Of a stretch of DNA of 64,000 bases, positions 16,021 through 56,573 are shown in pieces. How positions within the stretch are numbered: the first letter of the stretch is position 1; every line of letters begins with the position of its first letter. The stretch is from NCBI GenBank assembly GCA_016192685.1, contig JACPTS010000001.1:97710-161709 (forward strand), given 5' to 3'. The position numbers and the translations under genes were made by a program. The notes under the pieces were generated by a model. It was not told the origin of the DNA, did no database searches, and was given only the letters and a program-made list of their open reading frames with translations. The DNA is from Candidatus Harrisonbacteria bacterium. GTDB taxonomy: Bacteria; Patescibacteriota; Minisyncoccia; UBA6257; 02-FULL-45-10c.

Positions 16021-16050
16021 TCCCTCGATACATCGGGGGATTATTTTTTT
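16021..16050 (+). terminator. Rho-independent terminator (hairpin plus T-run)
   Basis: The hairpin tccctcgat-ac-atcggggga (9-bp stem, one U-G pair) is followed by ttattttttt, directly after the 15121-16020 gene. Confidence 0.7.
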
Positions 16051-19000
16051 ACTGAGATTTAGTTCCGTAAACTTCTTCTAATTTAGCTCTAGTTTTAGGA
16101 CCTAAACGGCCGTTGCCCGGGTCATTGGCGTTTTGAATTACGCCATGTTTCAGCTGGAAGCGCCGGACTGCCCCTTCAGTTAATTTTCCATAAAAACCAG
16201 TAGCTAATCCTTCCGGATAAACTTCTTTATCAGAAGCCAGCAATTGCTGAACTCGCTTTACTTCATCATTGCGAGCGCCGCTTTGTAAATCTTGATTAAA
16301 GACCGGAGAAACTGCTTGGACGACCGGAGAAGGCTGGGCAACTGACGGTGCAGTTGGAACTGCTTTAGGCGCACCAAACACCTCCGCTAACTTCGCTCTA
16401 GTTTTTGGACCTAATCGGCCGGCACCCGGTTCATCTCCGCTTTTCACCACCCCATGCTTCAACTGGAATTTAAGCACAGCTTTTTGAGTAAGTGATCCGT
16501 AAAACCCGGTGGCTAATCCTTCCGGATAAACTTCTTTATCCGAAGCTAAGAGCTGCTGGACTCTTTTTACATCGTCATTGCGAGCGCCGCTTTGTAAATC
16601 TTGATTAAAGACCGGAGAAACTGCTTGGACGACCGGAGAAGGCTGGGCAACTGATGGAGCTTTCGGCACTGCTACTGGCGCTTGAGCAAGCGACGCAATT
16701 GGTGTTGGCGAAGTACCATAATTATAAGAAGCAAAACCTCCTCCGCCACCGCCTCCTCCGCCGCCAGCGCCGCCGCCGGAATCAGAAATTTGAACTTTTG
16801 CATTTACATCGCCGGAAGCAGTGGATTCAGATGTTCCGCTGGATTTATAAGCTGATACCTTATAAAAGAAAGTAGTTCCGTTAGTGGCGCTGGTGTCCGC
16901 GTAACTGGAAACATTACCAGCATCCGCCAAAAGCGCGAAACTGCCGCCAGAAGTAGTATCCCGATAAATATAGTAACCAGTGGCGCCGCTGACCGCTGTC
17001 CAGCTAACAGTGATAGTTTTGCTTCCGGCCGCGCCGGCGGCAGCCGCTACGCCAGAAGGAGTAGAAGGGGCATCACCATCTGTTGGACTGGAAAGAGCGT
17101 AATTAGAAAAGTGAGTGCCAAGGGCGGTAAAAGTTACCGTGGAAACATCAGAAAGATTTGAGGCAGGCGAAGCTACTACATTACTGGAAGAATCAAGATA
17201 AGTGGCAGTCGTGCTTAAAGATTCCCATTCTTTTTTATCTTCGCTATAAGATACCACTTTTAAATTAGCAACTTCGGTCGTAGTATCAATACCGCTGGAA
17301 GCTAATTCCGCTTTGGTATAAGTCAATTGAACAGTAGCGCTTTTGCCCGACTCTAAATTCTGTTTCTGCGAGCCGCCGGAAAACGCGTCAATATCTATGG
17401 CTTTGCTCGCAACAATATTAACGCTGACCGAATCCACATAATTACTGGTCTGTTTAGCAGTTAAATAAGAACTATTTCCGGAAGAACCAAGGGCATTGGT
17501 ATCCAAATCTACTTTTACATTTACCGTAGAATCGCTTAACGATCCGGCAGAACTATCCGTAAAAGTATTAGAAGTCGCAAGTTTAGATTGAAGCGAAGAA
17601 GTAGTAGTAAGAGCGATATTAATGCTGGATTGGGAAGCGCTGACAGTAAGCGGATTAGAGCTATAACCGGATTTAGAATAGCCGTCCGCTGCCGCAAATA
17701 CCCGCCAGGTGCCGCTAGTTACGTATAAAGTATAATTGCCGCTTGTATCCGTGGTAGTCACAGCTTGGCCGCCGCCAACTTTTTCCGCAAAGACAAAAGC
17801 GCCGCTGGCCGCTGATCCGCCGGTAGTCACTTGGCCGGCAATCGTAAGAGAAGCAGAAGTTAAAACAAAGTTCTGGGTGGTGGTGCCGGAAACCGTAACC
17901 GTGGTCGGCGAACCGATATAGCCAGGCTTGGAAACCAAAACTTTATAAGTGCCGTTAGCCGCTTTAATGCTGTAAGCGCCGGAGGTAGTAGCCGTAGTTC
18001 CAAAATGAACTCCATTGGATTCATCCACAAATTGGATCCAGGCATCGGTTAATTCATTGCCGGCAGTCGCGGCAGTGTGATAAACCGTTCCGGAAACCAA
18101 ACTAAGAGCCGCGGTATTGGTGTTAACGGTGATTTTCACGGTTTCAGTGCTGTTATCAATGGTTAAGGCGCCGGCCGAAGAAACAGAAGTGCCGGTGGAA
18201 TCAGAGCCAACGGAAACATTCGCCGGCGGCACTCCCTGAACAAAAGCGCGGATAATCGGCGTAGTGCCGGTAGCATACTGCAAAGAAGTAGTGGTGGCAT
18301 TACTAATTTCTATATAGGTGGATTGCTTGGTGGAGGTAGAAAATAATTCCACAAACGCTTTAGTAACCTGGAGGGCATTGCTGTTGGAATCTTTTACATT
18401 AATAACCACCGTATTTCTCTTGGGAATTTTTATGTAATTGTTGCTGGACGAAGCAGTGAGATTCAAAGTGCCAATGGCATTGCCGTTATTATTCAAAGCG
18501 GCAATTCGGCCATAACCGGGTTTAAAAATATCCGTAATAGTGTAGCCGCTTCCAGCCGGCACTCGGACGGAAAATTCTCCGTTAGAAGAAACTGCTTCAT
18601 TAACACCGCTCGCGCCGGACAAACGAATAATTGCTCCGCTAATGCCCTCGGTGCTGGTGGCAAAAGCGCTATTACTGTCCGCGTCTTCATAAATATAGCC
18701 GGAGTAAATACTGAAAGTCGCGGAAGAAGACGGCGCGAAATTAATATCCGATTGATTGGCTCCGCTAATTATGACAGTTTGCTCGCTCATTGGTCCGAAT
18801 CCCGGAATAAAAGCGCTGACTTTCCAAGTGCCATTATCAACATAAATCGTATAATTGCCGGTGGAAGAATCGGATAAAGCATCAACGTGTCCGGGAGCAT
18901 CAGTCCTGTAAGCAAACACTGAAGCGTTTCCAACCGCGTTAGTACCGTCCGTCACCTTGCCGGTAATCTTATAGCTTGGTTTAGCCATTTTCAAAGTAAA

Positions 19001-22000
19001 AGGATTAGCGCCGGAACTGCCGGTGGAAACAGTTGGAGAACCATCCACAAAAACATTTCCGGAAGAATCTACCACCACTGAAACCTCCCGAGATTGGCCC
19101 ATGCCCGGATTAAAAGCGCCAACCACATAAGCGCCGCTTGTTACTTTAATGGAAAACGCGCCTGAAGCCGAAGTTTGAGAATGATTGCCGGTACCGCCGC
19201 TCGCCGAATAAGCAAATACCATAGCGCTGGAAATAGCGTTTCCCGAACCATCTTTCAAAACTCCGCTAATGGTTTTATCAGCTACGGAAATTGAAAAAGT
19301 ATAAGAAGAGGCCACGCTATTATCAATCTTGGCAACACAAGCCGACGGACAGCCGGAAACTTCCACATTCACTGGCTTAGGCATTGACCAGGTTGGCGCT
19401 GACGGCGGGCCGCTAAACCCGGCATTTCCCTTTGGCATGGGCGGGCCGATGCCAATGCCCCAAGAACCATTAGTTTGCGGTATAGGAATAGTAGTAAGAA
19501 CAGTACTGGCAGTCAAAGCCGCGGTGCCAGGCGTTACGGTTCTCACGATAAACTGGCCGGGTCCGCCGGCAAAAATATCAATTTGTTCCGTGGCAGTAAA
19601 AGTATTAGCAGTGGTGCTCGCTTTCACATTAAAATTAATTGCCGAAGAGGTCGCGGTTAAAGAAAAATTGCGCGTCAAAAGACTGGTGGAAGTGGCACGG
19701 ACCGGCGCGGGCATAGTTTCTCCAAAAAAAGCCGTAGTGGTTCCAGTCGGAGTAATAAAAGGATCAGTAAAAAGATAATATTCTCCGCCACCACCAAAAT
19801 TATTACTTAAAAATTGGGAATTGATTGGTATATTAGTAAATTGATAAAGGCCGTTACTATCGGAACTGGCGTCTAAGGGGCCGGTTTGGGGGGACATTAA
19901 ATGAATCGCCACGCCATTAAGATTCGCGCCATTCCCGCTTACCACTCCTTGAATGGTGGTAGTGGCTCCGCCGCCCAAAGATCCGCCATTAATAAATACC
20001 GGGTTAGCATTGAAAGATTCCAAAAGATTGCCGCTGTCATCTTTGGATTTGATATCCAAAACATAACCGGAGCTGTCAAAACCTTTTGGCACGGACGGAT
20101 TCTTAATATCCGCCACGGCAAATTTCAAAAAGTCATGGACATCGCCGCTTTCTGATCTGGTCGCGGTATCCAACTTCAAAGTAATAGTTTTGGCCGTAGT
20201 ATTTTTAGTAATTTGGCTAATACCAATAGTAAGGCTGTCACCGGGGCCGTTGATATCCTTATTTAAATCTTTAACTAAGGGATTATTAGCGCTAGTGGTA
20301 GCGGCGCAGCAAAACCCGAAATCTGAAGTAGAAGGAAAAGTAACTACAATAGTGCCGTTCGCCGGAATTCGCTTGGCAATCGGCAACTCAAAAATATAGG
20401 TGCTGGAAGCGCTGACAAAAGTGCTAAGCGGCCGCACGCTGACCGGCGGCATAAATCCAATGCCGCTGGAACTGAAATCTTTCACATCTCCAAAAGTTGA
20501 CCCGCTAAACGAGCCGGGACCGGTAAATCCGCCGGAAGCCGCGAAAGAGGCAATAGTGCCGGTAAAAGAACTGGAGCCGGACATTAAGTTGCTGGAGATA
20601 TCTTTAATATTTTGAGCGGCAATCACAAAAGTTGAGCCGGAAGCCAATCGCACTCCTTCTAATTTTGCCGTCCGGGTAGTCGCGTCATAGGTTAACTTAT
20701 GTCCGGCCAGAGCGCTTAAAGTTTGCGCTGTGCCACCAACAGTTAAAGTATAATTAGCCAAAGTAGTCGCGTCCGTGGAATTCACTGCTTCATCAAAAGT
20801 AATTGCCAAGCTAAAATCATCGCCATTGGCAAAAAGCATAGTTGGTCCGGCGCTGTCGGTATTAGAAGATTCCACGGTCCAGCTTCGAGTTACGTTAGTG
20901 CCGAGATACACTCCGGAAACATTTTTCAACGAAGCGCCCTTCAGTGTTAAAGTTAAAGTTTCTCCGGTTGGCAAAACATTACTCGGCGTAAAATGGCCTT
21001 CTTTGGAAACCGTATTGTAAAAAACCGAACCAGGAAGATTAATCCCTCCGCCCTTGCTTAAAGTTACGGCGCCGGAAGTAGCAGTCGTAACATCAATAAC
21101 ATCGTCAAAAGTAAATAAAAAATCATTGGTATTCGCGGAAATAGTAGTTCCCGGCGTAGGCAAGGCGGCAGTTAACGCGGGCGCGGTCGCATCGCTTTGG
21201 CCTCCGACAGTAAAAACTGAAGTATAAACAGCCGGTAAACCAATGCCGCTCAAATTTTTAACACCGCTTCCAACAGTTAAAGTATAAGTGGCATTAACAG
21301 TAAGAGTACTGCCAACAGTCATAATAAGGGCATTCCGGCCAGTGGAAGTGCTGAAAGTAAAACCGGAAAGAGTAATCCCGCCGCTAAGAGTGACATTGGT
21401 GGAGTTAAGTGTAGTCGTATCCATATCCGCCTGGCTAAATTCCGCCACAATTTTGGAAATATTAGTCGGAACATTTAAACTGCCGGGGAAAGGATCAGTA
21501 CCCACCACTCGCGGCGGCGTAATATTAGCAGTGGTTTGGCTTGCTCCGCCGGTAGTAAAAGTAGCAGTATAATTCTGATTTCCGGCAGTAAAAGTATTTT
21601 GATCTAATTGATTTCCGGAAAGGTCCTGGACATCGCTGGTAACGGTGAAAGTATAAGAGGTGCTTCCTGACAAAGAATTCGCGAGCAAAACGCATTTTGC
21701 TTCCGGTTCATAATTACCGTGGAAAGGATTATAAGTGACGCTGGTGCAAAGATTAGAACCGGTTCCGCCGGCTTTTAAAGTAACCGTAGTGGTAGCGCTG
21801 GCTGATACAATAGTAGCGTTCGCTACTGGTTTGTTAAAATTAAAACCAATATAGGATAAATCCTTTGGCGCATTGATCATTTGGTCGCCCGGGAAAGAAC
21901 CGCTCACTTGTAATTTAGAGGTGTCCTGATTGCCGCCGCCAAAAGGAAATTCAGTCGCGCTAGCATTATTTTGAGGTTGCGGAGTAGTTCGGGAAGCAAA

Positions 22001-23158
22001 TTCCACGGAGTTCATATTTTTATCAAACCCATTTCCTTTAGTCGCGTCAGCTCCGCCAACAGCCATCGTAACCGCGGTGGAAGTGGCATTGGGATAACCC
22101 TGCGCTAATCTTTCAAGAGATGTCCCGTCATCCGCCAAGGCCGGAGCGCAAGGCGTAGTGCTTCCCTCGCCGTTTTCACAATTAGCAGTCGGCTGAAGGC
22201 CAAAACCAATCATATCAATTTTGGAACTGGTGGCTTGGGTTGTCGCGGAGGAAGTAGCAATGGAAAATCCGCCATGCAACGATAAAATGCTGGAGGTGGC
22301 ATTATAAACCGCGTCCAAAGGAACCGAACCGCTGTAACCGACTTGAGAACCAATTAAAAAATAACCGTGGCTGGGTATTACTTTTTTAAAATAATAAGTA
22401 AGCGCTACCGGCGTAGAACTGCCGTTCGGATAAAAAGCATGCAGGCGCAAGGGCAAATCCTCTAAATTAATATCCGCTTCCCCGGAATTATAAAGTTCAA
22501 TAAACTCATCGGCTGAATTGCCAGTTGAACCGGCTTTTACTTCGCTAATTTTTAAAGTAGCTGATTGATTAAGAGTTACTTTTTTGCCCGGATTGAAAGC
22601 ACTACCGATTCCGCCGGAAGTGGTACTGGCAAAATTATTCTGCATCCGGACGTCAAACCCATGGCTATTAGTAATGCCGCTAGCGGCCGTAGTAGAAGCA
22701 ACCACATAAAATTCCGTAGAAACAGCGCCGACAGAAGCCGCGGTGCTCGGCGTCAAAACAATCAATGTCCCGTCAGCCAACGGGCTGGTAGAAGCGGCGC
22801 CGGCAATAAAAGTATCTTCGCTAATTTGAAAATCGGGATGAGCGCCGGATTCTTTCCATAAAGAAATTCTGGAAATCTCTCCCTGGCTCATTGTTGAAGA
22901 AGCAAAAATTTGAACCCCAACTTTGCTCAAAGTATCAGAGCCGCTGGCTTGAACCAAACGAAATCTAACCATCGGGATAATCGCGCCGCCGCCAACCGTG
23001 ACGTTCTCAAAAAGCGCGTCAATCGGCGGAGCGTCCACGGTAATAGCTGCCTGGGCGGGCGCCACTAACAAAAAAACGGCTCCGAAAGCCGCCAAAACAT
23101 ATCCCAAACGTTTTGGAAAAGAAATAAAAGAAAAAAATGAAAAAACGCCAGTAGTCAT
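16049..23158 (-). CDS. giant cell-surface protein (lamin-tail, CarbopepD_reg-like/Ig-like repeats, poly-Gly, two C-terminal peptidoglycan-binding domains)
   Basis: 2369 aa with an N-terminal signal/TM segment. Lamin-tail domain (LKISEVKAGSTGNSADEFIELYN...). Several carboxypeptidase-regulatory-like beta-sandwich repeats (GVVSGNGANLNGVAIHL..., ITGKVTDGTNAVGNASVFAY...). A GGGAGGGGGGGGGG tract. Two near-identical C-terminal PG_binding_1-like units (DVKRVQQLLASDKEVYPEGLATGFYG...). Confidence 0.85.
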   Translation of the reverse strand: MTTGVFSFFSFISFPKRLGYVLAAFGAVFLLVAPAQAAITVDAPPIDALFENVTVGGGAIIPMVRFRLVQASGSDTLSKVGVQIFASSTMSQGEISRISLWKESGAHPDFQISEDTFIAGAASTSPLADGTLIVLTPSTAASVGAVSTEFYVVASTTAASGITNSHGFDVRMQNNFASTTSGGIGSAFNPGKKVTLNQSATLKISEVKAGSTGNSADEFIELYNSGEADINLEDLPLRLHAFYPNGSSTPVALTYYFKKVIPSHGYFLIGSQVGYSGSVPLDAVYNATSSILSLHGGFSIATSSATTQATSSKIDMIGFGLQPTANCENGEGSTTPCAPALADDGTSLERLAQGYPNATSTAVTMAVGGADATKGNGFDKNMNSVEFASRTTPQPQNNASATEFPFGGGNQDTSKLQVSGSFPGDQMINAPKDLSYIGFNFNKPVANATIVSASATTTVTLKAGGTGSNLCTSVTYNPFHGNYEPEAKCVLLANSLSGSTSYTFTVTSDVQDLSGNQLDQNTFTAGNQNYTATFTTGGASQTTANITPPRVVGTDPFPGSLNVPTNISKIVAEFSQADMDTTTLNSTNVTLSGGITLSGFTFSTSTGRNALIMTVGSTLTVNATYTLTVGSGVKNLSGIGLPAVYTSVFTVGGQSDATAPALTAALPTPGTTISANTNDFLFTFDDVIDVTTATSGAVTLSKGGGINLPGSVFYNTVSKEGHFTPSNVLPTGETLTLTLKGASLKNVSGVYLGTNVTRSWTVESSNTDSAGPTMLFANGDDFSLAITFDEAVNSTDATTLANYTLTVGGTAQTLSALAGHKLTYDATTRTAKLEGVRLASGSTFVIAAQNIKDISSNLMSGSSSFTGTIASFAASGGFTGPGSFSGSTFGDVKDFSSSGIGFMPPVSVRPLSTFVSASSTYIFELPIAKRIPANGTIVVTFPSTSDFGFCCAATTSANNPLVKDLNKDINGPGDSLTIGISQITKNTTAKTITLKLDTATRSESGDVHDFLKFAVADIKNPSVPKGFDSSGYVLDIKSKDDSGNLLESFNANPVFINGGSLGGGATTTIQGVVSGNGANLNGVAIHLMSPQTGPLDASSDSNGLYQFTNIPINSQFLSNNFGGGGEYYLFTDPFITPTGTTTAFFGETMPAPVRATSTSLLTRNFSLTATSSAINFNVKASTTANTFTATEQIDIFAGGPGQFIVRTVTPGTAALTASTVLTTIPIPQTNGSWGIGIGPPMPKGNAGFSGPPSAPTWSMPKPVNVEVSGCPSACVAKIDNSVASSYTFSISVADKTISGVLKDGSGNAISSAMVFAYSASGGTGNHSQTSASGAFSIKVTSGAYVVGAFNPGMGQSREVSVVVDSSGNVFVDGSPTVSTGSSGANPFTLKMAKPSYKITGKVTDGTNAVGNASVFAYRTDAPGHVDALSDSSTGNYTIYVDNGTWKVSAFIPGFGPMSEQTVIISGANQSDINFAPSSSATFSIYSGYIYEDADSNSAFATSTEGISGAIIRLSGASGVNEAVSSNGEFSVRVPAGSGYTITDIFKPGYGRIAALNNNGNAIGTLNLTASSSNNYIKIPKRNTVVINVKDSNSNALQVTKAFVELFSTSTKQSTYIEISNATTTSLQYATGTTPIIRAFVQGVPPANVSVGSDSTGTSVSSAGALTIDNSTETVKITVNTNTAALSLVSGTVYHTAATAGNELTDAWIQFVDESNGVHFGTTATTSGAYSIKAANGTYKVLVSKPGYIGSPTTVTVSGTTTQNFVLTSASLTIAGQVTTGGSAASGAFVFAEKVGGGQAVTTTDTSGNYTLYVTSGTWRVFAAADGYSKSGYSSNPLTVSASQSSINIALTTTSSLQSKLATSNTFTDSSAGSLSDSTVNVKVDLDTNALGSSGNSSYLTAKQTSNYVDSVSVNIVASKAIDIDAFSGGSQKQNLESGKSATVQLTYTKAELASSGIDTTTEVANLKVVSYSEDKKEWESLSTTATYLDSSSNVVASPASNLSDVSTVTFTALGTHFSNYALSSPTDGDAPSTPSGVAAAAGAAGSKTITVSWTAVSGATGYYIYRDTTSGGSFALLADAGNVSSYADTSATNGTTFFYKVSAYKSSGTSESTASGDVNAKVQISDSGGGAGGGGGGGGGGFASYNYGTSPTPIASLAQAPVAVPKAPSVAQPSPVVQAVSPVFNQDLQSGARNDDVKRVQQLLASDKEVYPEGLATGFYGSLTQKAVLKFQLKHGVVKSGDEPGAGRLGPKTRAKLAEVFGAPKAVPTAPSVAQPSPVVQAVSPVFNQDLQSGARNDEVKRVQQLLASDKEVYPEGLATGFYGKLTEGAVRRFQLKHGVIQNANDPGNGRLGPKTRAKLEEVYGTKSQ
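16075..16677. repeat. tandem duplication, about 309-bp period, 2 copies, encoding the two PG-binding domains
   Basis: Copies at about 16075-16368 and 16384-16677 are nearly identical. They include a 77-bp perfect identity starting at 16268 and 16577. Confidence 0.85.
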
Positions 23159-23209
23159 TTAAAATATATTGAATTTATTATAACAAAACAAAATGGATTT
23201 AAAAAAATC

Positions 23210-23240
23210 GGTTGTGGATAACTTTTCCACTCGCTATAAC
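23210..23240 (-). promoter_or_regulatory. conserved ~30-bp upstream motif containing a perfect DnaA-box 9-mer (TTATCCACA on the minus strand)
   Basis: ggttgtggataacttttccactcgctataac lies 52-82 bp upstream of the giant-protein start. A near-identical motif occurs at 26014-26044 upstream of the 24441-25889 gene. Confidence 0.4.
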
Positions 23241-23370
23241 TATTTGTCTACCGGCACCGGAGTCCGCTTGCTCCTGCGGCAAGCGGCTCTTACGCCTCGC
23301 TCCGAAATTCGCCTTCGGCGATCCAAGCATTTCGGAGCTCCGTAGTTGCCGCACAACAAATAGTTATAGC
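23233..23370 (+). ncRNA. candidate structured RNA or MITE-like element (about 140 nt)
   Basis: 15-bp perfect inverted repeats (gctataactatttgt / acaaatagttatagc) enclose three internal perfect stems: ccgcttgc/gcaagcgg, ctccgaaat/atttcggag, and a nested tcgcc-UUCG-ggcga tetraloop hairpin. No coding potential. The strand is assigned from the UUCG tetraloop. Confidence 0.35.
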
Positions 23371-23402
23371 TCGCTCTATGATATTTTACTTCCTTTAAAA
23401 AT

Positions 23403-23438
23403 AACCGAGCACATAATATTATGTGCTCGGTTATTTCT
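23403..23438 (-). terminator. bidirectional Rho-independent terminator
   Basis: Perfect 12-bp stem aaccgagcacat/atgtgctcggtt, flanked by an A-run on the plus strand (T-run on the minus strand) immediately downstream of the 23454-24386 gene. Confidence 0.7.
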
Positions 23439-23453
23439 CAAGATTTTATAATC

Positions 23454-24386
23454 TTATCTTTTTAGTAAGGCTTCCAAGGCTTTTTTGGCCGCGTCAAGCT
23501 GGGACTGAAGAGCAGATTTAGAAGTAGAAGGGGCTGGGGCTGGAGTCGGTGCTGGAGCCGGCGCCGGAGCTGGTTTTGATTTCAACAAATTCTGCAATGC
23601 CTCTTTAGCCGCGTCAAGCTGGGATTGAAGAGCAGATTTAGAAGTAGCAGGAGCTGAAGCAGGTGCTGGAGTTGGAGCCGGAACAGCTGGTTTTTTTATT
23701 CTGTCTAATAAAGCTTTAAGCTGGCTGGCGGCTGCGTCAAGTTGGGAGCGCAATCTAGACGGAGTGGATGGCGCTGAAACTGGAGCCGCAACAGGCGCTG
23801 GGACTCCTCTTACTTTATTTAGAAGATTTTGAAGTTGTTGTTTCAAATTTTCTAAAAGAGAAGCAGTTGGAGAAAGTGGTCTAGCAGGAGTTAATTGACC
23901 AGCTGGAGTTAATTGAGCTGTTGGAGCTAATGTTGTGCCAGTTCCGCCTCCACCTCCACCACCGCCGCCTCCTCCACCACCACCGCCGCCGCCTCCGCCG
24001 CCAAGACCAGAGCAAGTTTCTGTAGTAGAAGGAGTAATAGTAACCGTAACTGTGCCGGAATCCTGGGCGGCAAAAACAGTAACGGATGATTCAGAAGACG
24101 TACAGCTGGATTCTTGTTGGATGGCGCCAGTAGCAGAAACCGCGAATTTTCTCCGGTCAGTTGAACTCATACCAAAAGATTTGGAAGGGCTCAAAACAAC
24201 ATCCATACTGGCCGTATCCACGGTAATAGAATCAATAACCCGATCAACGGCAGTTACCAAGAAGGTATAACTGCCAATCACTATTTCCGTATTGCCGCCG
24301 CCAGTCAAGGTAAGATCATTCGCGGCAAAAGCAAACAAAGGCAAAAGCAAAGCTGACAAGATTTTTAAATAAATCTTTTTTTTCAT
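23454..24386 (-). CDS. secreted repetitive protein with a 21-residue poly-Gly tract and Pro/Ala-rich C-terminal repeats
   Basis: 310 aa with a signal peptide. G21 run, then three repeats of the type KSALQSQLDAAKEALQNLLK plus PAPAPAP. Confidence 0.7.
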   Translation of the reverse strand: MKKKIYLKILSALLLPLFAFAANDLTLTGGGNTEIVIGSYTFLVTAVDRVIDSITVDTASMDVVLSPSKSFGMSSTDRRKFAVSATGAIQQESSCTSSESSVTVFAAQDSGTVTVTITPSTTETCSGLGGGGGGGGGGGGGGGGGGGGTGTTLAPTAQLTPAGQLTPARPLSPTASLLENLKQQLQNLLNKVRGVPAPVAAPVSAPSTPSRLRSQLDAAASQLKALLDRIKKPAVPAPTPAPASAPATSKSALQSQLDAAKEALQNLLKSKPAPAPAPAPTPAPAPSTSKSALQSQLDAAKKALEALLKR

Positions 24387-25889: not shown

Positions 25890-26013
25890 AATCCTTTATT
25901 TTGAGAACCTAACCCTTTATAAAGATAGATTCTAAAATTATATTATTTTTACGACCTTAATTTTTAATTTTAATTTGTAATGAAATTAAGTATAAATAAA
26001 TCAGCAATTGGTG

Positions 26014-26044
26014 AAAAGGGGTGGGCTGTGGATAACTTTTTCAT
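26014..26044 (-). promoter_or_regulatory. second copy of the conserved upstream motif with the TTATCCACA 9-mer
   Basis: ggctgtggataactttttcatcgcttatcgc lies about 130 bp upstream of the 24441-25889 start. It has the same orientation as the 23210-23240 copy. Confidence 0.4.
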
Positions 26045-55646: not shown

Positions 55647-55735
55647 ATCTCCTTTTATATTAGAACTATAAAAGATAACAAAATTTCCCGCATATCAGTC
55701 ACTGCGTCATAAACGAGCTACCTATCTGCCATGCG

Positions 55736-55757
55736 GCCTGCCTGCCGGCAGGCAGGC
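55736..55757. other. perfect 22-bp GC-rich palindrome in an intergenic region
   Basis: gcctgcctgccggcaggcaggc, between an SDR gene end and the aldolase gene start. Confidence 0.8.
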
Positions 55758-55772
55758 AACTACGGAGAAAAA

Positions 55773-56573
55773 TCAACGCATTATCGCTCCGCCATCAACA
55801 AAAAGTATTTGCCCGGTAATGTTTTTCGCCTCGTCAGAGCCGAGAAAAACCGCCGCCATCCCGATGTCTTCCGGAGTTTGCTCTCGCTGAAGCGGCACTA
55901 ATTCTTTCATGCGCTTTTCAAAAATGGCGCGCGGTTCCATATTTTGATATTTCTCCGGAAATAATTCTTTTAAATTTTCGGCAATATGTTCCCAAAGCGG
56001 CGTCCAAACCAATCCCGGCGCGATGGCATTCACCGTAACGCCATACGGAGCGAATTCGTGGGCAAGAATTTGGGTAAAAGTGGCGACTCCCATCTTGGCC
56101 ACGCTATACGGCGGTTTCATGCGGCCGGGCATGAATGCCGCGATAGATGAAAGATTAATAATTCTTCCGGATTTGCGTTCCTGAAAATGCGGCGCGATTG
56201 CTTTAGCGGCATAAAAAACTGGTTTCATATTAAATTTCCACGCCTCATCCCAATCTTCTTCGGTATTCCGAGTGAACGGCAGTCCGGGCCGGCATTCTTT
56301 TCCGACATTATTAACTAAAATATCTATTCCGCCGAATTTTTCAATCACTTTCCTGAAAAAATCATTTATCTCTTTTTCTTGAGTAACATCTAATTTTACC
56401 GCCGACACCTTTGCCCCGGACTTGGATAATTCCGATGCCGCGTTTTCCGCTTGTTCTAAATTAATATCAGCAATAACCGCGATTGCTCCTTCTTTTGCCA
56501 TGCAAGAGACAATTCCCTTTCCAATGCCGCTGGCGCCGCCGGTCACAACTGCTACTTTATTTTTGAGTCTCAT
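55773..56573 (-). CDS. SDR-family oxidoreductase
   Basis: 266 aa. VAVVTGGASGIGKG with catalytic YxxxK (YSVAK). Confidence 0.88.
   Translation of the reverse strand: MRLKNKVAVVTGGASGIGKGIVSCMAKEGAIAVIADINLEQAENAASELSKSGAKVSAVKLDVTQEKEINDFFRKVIEKFGGIDILVNNVGKECRPGLPFTRNTEEDWDEAWKFNMKPVFYAAKAIAPHFQERKSGRIINLSSIAAFMPGRMKPPYSVAKMGVATFTQILAHEFAPYGVTVNAIAPGLVWTPLWEHIAENLKELFPEKYQNMEPRAIFEKRMKELVPLQREQTPEDIGMAAVFLGSDEAKNITGQILFVDGGAIMR

Follow-up and report, generated by a model that had tools for sequence, protein, structure and literature searches.

The GC-rich element at 23230-23375 of the window (the whole 64-kb stretch of DNA analyzed here) is, by sequence comparison, one copy of a family of scattered repeats of 146-150 nt that have a predicted Y-shaped fold and lie between genes in Harrisonbacteria- and Tagabacteria-like Patescibacteria. 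The Y-fold is under selection and is kept by compensatory mutations, and the family is probably a non-autonomous mobile, or formerly mobile, structured repeat of the kind of the miniature inverted-repeat transposable elements (MITEs) and of bcr1 from B. cereus. We found no description of the family in the literature on Patescibacteria/Parcubacteria repeats or RNA motifs or in Rfam 15; as far as we found, the family is thus undescribed, and the kind of element is already known.

Position of the element in a surface-protein locus

The window covers a polysaccharide and surface-protein region on the 608-kb contig of a Candidatus Harrisonbacteria MAG (Patescibacteria), and of this source genome we read the window and approximately 2.6 kb beyond it. 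On the minus strand, a gene for a low-complexity 310-aa protein (23454-24386) is followed by its terminator, the element, a box of sequence AAAAGTTATCCACA directly 3' of the element (23213-23226), an AT-rich stretch with TGTTATAAT, and the ATG (at 23158) of a gene encoding a giant surface protein of 2369 aa (16049-23158), which starts 72 nt from the element. The terminator, read from its sequence as a bidirectional intrinsic terminator of the 310-aa gene, is a perfect 34-nt palindrome (23401-23434) with A/T runs on both sides, in agreement with the initial annotation, which had noted a terminator immediately after the element. The palindrome adjoins the element and is absent beside other copies, so it is not a feature of the family. 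The short-read unitigs L001 and L002 stop exactly at this palindrome.

On the giant-gene side, TGTTATAAT (23177-23185, minus strand) resembles an extended -10 hexamer by consensus reading and lies 19 nt upstream of the ATG; if it is used as a promoter, the element would be located upstream of the promoter of the giant gene. This hexamer is missing from the list returned by the promoter scan, which requires a -35 match. The scan did return a sigma-70-like 10/12 match, TTGAGA-17-TATTAT, at 23441-23413 of the minus strand. The element belongs to a lineage-specific segment of approximately 350 nt between the 310-aa gene and the giant gene, which also holds the terminator and a duplicated promoter-region box. 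A 79-aa ORF (23212-23451) overlapping the element was rejected as a coding sequence, as the copies show indels of 2 and 4 nt, and ARAGORN found no tRNA or tmRNA in the window.

Predicted fold of the element

In the predicted Y-fold, an outer stem (P1), an internal loop, and a 5-bp stem (P2) lead to a three-way junction with 2 arms, P3 and P4-P5-P6. The coordinates given initially for the inverted repeat and the stems all hold, and with its flanks the element extends over 23230-23375. The TIR-like P1 is a perfect 15-bp inverted repeat in the window, formed by GCTATAACTATTTGT (23233-23247) and ACAAATAGTTATAGC (23356-23370) and enclosing 108 bp. P2 (CGGCA, 23252-23256, paired with TGCCG, 23347-23351) is invariant in all copies, and the 4-5-nt internal loops that flank it (CTAC/CACA) are conserved. 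The P3 arm (23259-23290) reads GGAG-(T)-CCGCTTGC, a TCCTGCG loop, and GCAAGCGG-CTCT, and includes an 8-bp hairpin (23264-23271/23279-23286). The second arm (23291-23344) consists of P4 (TACG/CGTA, 23291-23294/23341-23344), the 10-bp stem P5 (23299-23308/23329-23338), and the 5-bp stem P6 (tcgcc-ttc-ggcga, 23309-23313/23317-23321), with a conserved 7-nt bulge, TCCAAGC, at 23322-23328. The tip of P6 had been described as a UUCG tetraloop. This does not hold because the next pair would be C-C and the 5-pair register leaves a 3-nt loop, UUC on the plus strand and GAA on the minus strand. The homologues keep the same triloop register, and the tip of P6 therefore provides no argument for either strand.

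The RNA minimum free energy was -69.1 kcal/mol for the plus strand (z -7.8) and -75.2 kcal/mol for the minus strand (z -6.8), with 0 of 200 shuffles as good in both cases, and the DNA fold had a z of approximately -9 on both strands. The GC content of the element is 55%, versus 19% and 28% in the flanking spacer. The structure of the element is far beyond chance, and the view that it is a fortuitous cluster of palindromes is poorly supported or refuted.

Copies of the family and their neighbors

Homologues were located by a DNA pattern, built from the residues common to the window and L007, and by synteny (L020, L022, L027, L025, L007, and L041). Scanning metagenome contigs with the pattern gave 10 matches, 4 of which are true copies (L020, L022, L027, and L025); the other 6 fell by chance in GC-rich coding DNA and were set aside. 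The 4 complete copies (window, L020, L022, and L027) were used to build a covariance model, which recovers all copies with E values from 1e-15 to 1e-46 and matches the 146 nt of the window element end to end (168 bits, E 1e-42). The copy density is approximately 1 per 40 kb, from approximately 280 kb searched with a second model and further loci searched with the first.

The copies lie beside unlike genes, in both orientations relative to them, and usually 1-70 nt beyond a stop codon or terminator. The L022 copy is located between tktN and tktC, which encode the N-terminal and the C-terminal half of transketolase, 4 nt past the stop codon; the L027 copy between the gene for a 523-aa protein and FtsH; the L025 copy after a PilM-like gene; and the L020 copy after a ClpB-like gene and a 256-aa gene. 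The L007 copy, just downstream of a Wzy gene, is 94% identical to the window in its interior and has a different outer arm and the opposite orientation; its contig ends approximately 90 nt into the element. It is also inverted relative to the remnants found at the same site in relatives, which comprise approximately 40 nt of one element end followed by unrelated sequence in L008 and 8-12 nt of arm beside AGCGAG in L003 and L017. The unrelated intergenic sequence in L008 (12286-12470, approximately 190 nt) separates the 40-nt element end from a AAAAGTTATCCACA box and contains no ORF and no model match. Short-read Logan unitigs end within copies (L007, L040, L041, and L044), as expected of a repeated sequence.

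Searches of wider collections returned little. The Rfam scan suggested in the initial annotation gave no match at the gathering threshold in the window and 6 homologous loci, self-cleaving ribozymes, riboswitches, 6S, SRP, and Y RNA included, and at E<=10 around the element only spurious matches to the neighboring terminator. There was no match by blastn against 72,556 plasmids and 50,697 phages or in pattern scans of viral contigs, and no relatives emerged when species genomes were scanned with the 482-aa neighbor protein as anchor. A 20-mer from the element end, searched in 185,579 species genomes, occurred only in the L008 contig and in 5 chance matches. No convincing conserved promoter or terminator flanks the copies. 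No transposase, recombinase, or longer autonomous relative was found, and approximately 400 kb of loci contained no parent IS with the same ends.

Compensatory changes in the stems

The initial annotation had named covariation in relatives as a check of the element, and it was borne out. In an alignment of 7 sequences including L041, 3 of which are truncated and which was fitted to the model and so favors structure, 97.3% of the pair cells form standard pairs and 23 of the 49 pairs are changed on both sides. The observed value was reached by none of 500 shuffles on any of 5 measures, and when partners were slid by 1-3 columns as a control, 33-51% of the cells were paired. An independent MAFFT/RNAalifold analysis of 4 sequences gave 16-17 compensated pairs. 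Changes are unevenly spread over the fold. Nearly every copy has its own sequence in P1, P5, and P6, and these helices covary; in P1, 8 of 14 pairs are changed on both sides, and the outer-stem arms of the window, L020, L022, and L027 (12-15 bp) differ in sequence yet covary. P3 is identical in 6 sequences, but 7 of its pairs covary in L041. Little or no variation is seen in P2, in P4, at the junction residues, in the UCCNGCG loop of P3, and in the CCAAGC bulge.

Filled and empty sites, and copies per genome

The tkt site contains the element in 9 strain contigs (L029-L038), all in one orientation, and is empty in L039, a Harrisonbacteria MAG with a 91% identical tktN, the difference being a clean indel of approximately 152 nt. 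This empty site, the only one that could be aligned, has no single clean copy of the flanking repeat. At the window locus, the closest relative (L003/L004, Tagabacteria-like, Wzy 90% identical) has the giant gene and no element upstream of it. Because its orthologous 306-aa gene lies 11 nt from the giant gene and nucleotide similarity to the window resumes only approximately 60 nt into the giant gene, a segment of approximately 350 nt in the window, which includes the terminator, the element, the box, and the promoter region, has no counterpart there. The site before FtsH is filled in 2 genomes (L027/L042 and the orthologous L040/L041) with intact pairing and very different stems, which looks like long-term retention in place.

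The 608-kb contig that contains the window also has a record of P0242, a 44% identical homologue of the 523-aa L027 protein, and the P0242-bearing contigs L040 and L041 hold a further intact copy of the family (L040 2518-2626; L041 2155-2282), 13 nt past the terminator that follows a hypothetical gene of 520 aa (HYY86_01845) and oriented as in L027. L040 and L041 come from the SRR121134xx run series, as do L001 and L002, which carry the 310-aa gene of the window; with metagenome contigs assigned to one genome by co-occurrence in samples only, the source genome would contain at least 2 intact copies, 1 of them outside the window. The window itself holds a degenerate copy at 55712-55772 of the minus strand, CTCCGTAGTTGCC[TGCCTGCCGGCAGGCAGGC]CGCATGGCAGATAGGTAGCTCGTT, which was the third-best match in the window with filters off (E 0.039). 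It lies directly after the stop codon of the gene at 55773-56573, has a 13-nt exact match to the element, and keeps CTCCGTAGTTGCC and CGCATGGCAGATAGGTAGCTCGTT around a 19-nt GC palindrome, TGCCTGCCGGCAGGCAGGC, that replaces the interior. Extra copies in the genome, initially put forward as the test of a MITE, were thus found in both an intact and a degenerate form. For the Tagabacteria-like population, the Wzy, tkt, and FtsH loci occur in the same samples (all 3 in ERZ4903072, pairs in others), a co-occurrence that is consistent with several copies in a Tagabacteria-like genome.

Ends of the element and flanking repeats

Read on the minus strand, all 4 complete copies are flanked on both sides by an oriented direct repeat of 5-7 nt, A(G/A)CGAG(C/T). 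In the window it is AGCGAG on both sides (CTCGCT on the plus strand, 23230-23235 and 23370-23375), in L020 AGCGAGC twice (GCTCGCT on the plus strand), and in L022 AACGAGT twice (ACTCGTT on the plus strand). The L027 copy has AGCGAAC and AGTGAGC on the minus strand, and the 2 differences are mutually complementary. Within a copy, those positions of the repeat that lie beyond the stem match as well, which looks like a duplication, and the near constancy of the sequence implies either a strict choice of target or a recombination core. In relatives, a site lacking the element has a single (T)AGCGA(G/A) immediately past the stop codon, in some cases with a few arm-like bases before it. A stop codon followed by AGCGAG is not a general gene-end signal, at least in the window, where it does not occur at the other 50-odd gene ends. 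We can only infer that an excised copy with its ends joined would consist of inverted arms of 12-13 bp around an asymmetric spacer of 6-7 bp.

Strand and type of nucleic acid

Among the pair cells, 242 of 257 are Watson-Crick, and wobble pairs are almost absent. A constant U.G closes the P3 loop, and apart from it there is 1 G.U on the plus strand; 3 A.C pairs on the plus strand would be G.U on the minus strand, and some of these fall in P5/P6 of L041, which align poorly. These pairs are too few for a strand call. Their scarcity suits a structure that must form in DNA or on both strands, and palindromes "corrected" through template switching would be compatible with it as well. The RNA of the minus strand folds 4-13 kcal/mol more stably in all 4 complete copies, and its DNA folds 2-5 kcal/mol better. 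These modeled energies are weak hints in favor of the minus strand.

Resemblances to known motifs were also considered. On the minus strand, the tip of P6 is GCGAAGC or CCGAAGG in the window, L020, L022, L027, and L007, which are the sequences of the very stable DNA mini-hairpin d(GCGAAGC) (PMC13037366). The mini-hairpin was dropped both as a defining feature and as evidence of single-stranded DNA because L041 has a TAT loop. Domain 5 of group II introns is characterized by an AGC plus a bulge; P3 was rejected as such a domain because L041 has no AGC. A hammerhead-like core was rejected as well, as the CUGAUGA and GAAA motifs are missing and there is no Rfam match.

Discussion

We favor a mobile or formerly mobile origin for the family because its copies occur at unrelated sites and in both orientations, orthologous sites are filled or empty, some copies are truncated, and the ends are inverted and flanked by repeats. 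If so, the folded single strand would be the form that selection sees, either as a single-stranded DNA intermediate or as a read-through transcript. A trans-acting protein would probably recognize the conserved junction and cut or recombine at the AGCGAG repeats, and the excised ends would join as arm-AGCGAG(C)-arm, resembling the core site of a recombinase. Insertions would land in places that tolerate them, just 3' of stop codons or terminators. If the element influences the giant gene at all, for instance by insulating it or by forming a stable structure in read-through RNA, this would be a by-product, and RNA-level effects on neighbors would be secondary.

The closest described analogue is bcr1 of the B. 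cereus group, a repeat of approximately 155 bp with 5-bp direct repeats and a non-conserved distribution that is transcribed and has a cruciform-like fold with 2 stem-loops kept by compensatory changes (PMC3184786). The 2 families are alike in size (approximately 155 versus 146-150), distribution between relatives, short flanking repeats, and a compensated fold. They belong to different phyla, and the likeness is functional rather than one of membership by sequence. They also differ in that bcr1 is present in tens to approximately a hundred copies per genome, compared with approximately 1 copy per 40 kb here, and in that the flanking repeat is nearly constant at every copy here. Bacterial MITEs such as Correia/NEMIS, ERIC, and RUP are small intergenic elements with TIRs and direct repeats, for which stable hairpins are predicted upon co-transcription (PMC3184786). 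The present family shares with them the non-coding and intergenic character, the TIRs, the flanking repeats, and insertion near gene ends, but the TIR sequence of MITEs is conserved and matches a parent IS, whereas here the terminal stem covaries and the internal three-way junction is conserved.

Several other systems are alike in part. REPs occur in hundreds of copies and carry a GTAG/CTAC tetranucleotide beside the stem. As in REP/BIME/REPIN systems (RAYT, HUH Y1), the element is a palindrome at gene 3' ends, in both orientations and with selection on the hairpin, and it also has a CTAC beside a stem; unlike REPs, which are hairpins of approximately 35 nt (Table 1, PMC3184786), and REPINs, it is 146 nt long, branched, and low in copy number. 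Its ends, if joined, would resemble lox/dif-like core sites in having inverted arms around an asymmetric spacer, but a double-stranded circle of 146 bp would be implausibly small. Conservation of structure above sequence is shared with integron attC sites, from which the family differs in that its ends (GCTATAAC.../...GTTATAGC) vary between copies and do not fit RYYYAAC/GTTRRRY, and in that no integrase gene is nearby, the neighbors being housekeeping genes.

Several results weaken the mobile reading. Copy density is low and the element-end 20-mer is nearly absent from species genomes, the outer-stem sequences differ although TIRs recognized by a transposase are normally conserved in sequence, and no transposase, recombinase, or autonomous relative was found. 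The empty site of L039 without a single clean repeat copy and the retention at the FtsH site in 2 genomes with intact pairing point the same way. A target duplication in particular is weakened by the nearly identical sequence and the constant orientation of the repeat in every copy, and the repeat may instead belong to the element itself or be a core for recombination. A plain MITE thus fits poorly, given the covarying outer stem, the conserved internal junction, the modest copy number, and the FtsH-site retention, and this keeps alive the rival view that the copies are a host-functional family of structured RNAs, encoded on the minus strand in the window, which could be paralogous ncRNA genes or cis-acting modules at gene ends. 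The three-way junction would then be a protein- or ligand-binding or catalytic core, and mobility would be absent or incidental. We regard this as possible but unlikely. A role as a structured RNA is retained because the covariation is very strong, of the quality seen in ncRNAs and with invariant junction and loop nucleotides, and many compensatory changes accompany the retention at the FtsH site. The higher stability of the minus-strand RNA and the balance of variable cells (3 A.C versus 1 G.U on the plus strand) would agree with it, as would the 3 copies with the minus strand along the neighboring genes, which start 13-27 nt past an intrinsic terminator, as an independent unit might. However, orientation is mixed, several copies lie 1-5 nt past a stop codon or inside the tkt operon, and no conserved promoter or terminator accompanies them; truncated and degenerate copies, the flanking direct repeats, the scarcity of wobble pairs, unusual for RNA helices, and the lack of an Rfam family also argue against it.

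The initial annotation had offered 3 readings, of which the MITE-like one fits best and the other 2 are poorly supported. A small RNA on the plus strand, running from approximately 23228 to the terminator (23403-23432), would be provided with a strong hairpin and a T-rich tail no more than 26 nt after the element, and the 1 G.U pair is specific to that strand. Its basis was the UUCG tetraloop, which does not exist; the terminator is the convergent reading of that of the 310-aa gene and is absent beside other copies, no plus-strand promoter was found upstream, and the fold energies hint at the minus strand. We consider this RNA very improbable. Still less probable is a minus-strand reading in which the element is a structured 5' leader, or an attenuator, of the mRNA for the giant surface protein: the element does lie 72 nt upstream of the ATG, and transcription from TTGAGA-17-TATTAT (23441-23413) would place it in a long leader, but no element accompanies the orthologous giant gene in the closest relative, homologues occur beside unrelated housekeeping genes in both orientations rather than at a constant position and orientation by homologous genes, as would a cis-regulatory leader or riboswitch, and the extended -10 TGTTATAAT downstream of the element is better placed. 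The perfect 15-bp inverted repeats around 108 bp, upstream of a giant surface protein in a polysaccharide locus, also recall an invertible promoter switch, and the L007 copy is indeed inverted relative to the remnants at its site. The interior, though, consists of GC-rich nested hairpins with no promoter-like hexamers, the same interior is found between housekeeping genes, and the 9 strain contigs have a single orientation at the tkt site, so that we find such a switch scarcely credible.

Beyond the mobile-repeat reading, we tentatively raise the less likely prospect that the family constitutes, in the CPR, a new class of nucleic acid that is both structured and functional. It would be either a three-way-junction ncRNA or ribozyme maintained in place at gene ends or a folded single-stranded DNA substrate of mobilization. 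The single-stranded DNA variant would imply an undescribed site-specific system (HUH or recombinase) with crossover at AGCGAG and joined ends that are lox-like. If the junction does bind a protein or is catalytic, the family would be an entry to a new mobilization or RNA system. The genomes of Patescibacteria are tiny, and the usual description is that they contain few repeats and little mobile DNA. A family of structured repeats whose covariation is of ncRNA quality is therefore something concrete and new for this group, and it offers a handle on genome plasticity near surface-protein and polysaccharide loci. The family also calls for caution in ncRNA discovery by way of GC-rich intergenic islands, and in practice its copy at this locus should not receive an annotation as leader or riboswitch for the giant gene.

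Other motifs and repeats of the locus

The AAAAGTTATCCACA box beside the element has another copy in the window, after the Wzy gene (26027-26040, minus strand), where it is present in the source genome and in all relatives; it is a promoter-region motif of the host that lies outside the element. In every relative (L003 12209-12220, L008 12479-12490, and L015-L018) the box is found right after the stop codon of the Wzy/TPR gene and approximately 30 nt upstream of the sigma-70-like promoter of the surface-protein gene. It contains a perfect DnaA-box consensus, TTATCCACA, usually has a C-run after it, and is possibly a binding site for a regulator.

The 5' UTR of the gene for the 482-aa bactofilin-like surface protein contains repeated TTAGGTCG motifs (window 25890-25990, minus strand), which are kept in L003 (12280-12350), L016, L017, and L008. 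A hairpin in the same 5' UTR, AGAAYCTA...TAGGTTCT, is kept in 3 loci and shows a compensating difference between the window and L003. Of the 2 proteins encoded beside the element, the 310-aa protein has a run of 23 Gly residues and 2 internal repeats of approximately 100 nt each that are 80% identical, and the 2369-aa protein has, at its C-terminal end, 2 near-identical repeats of approximately 90 aa following a Gly run.
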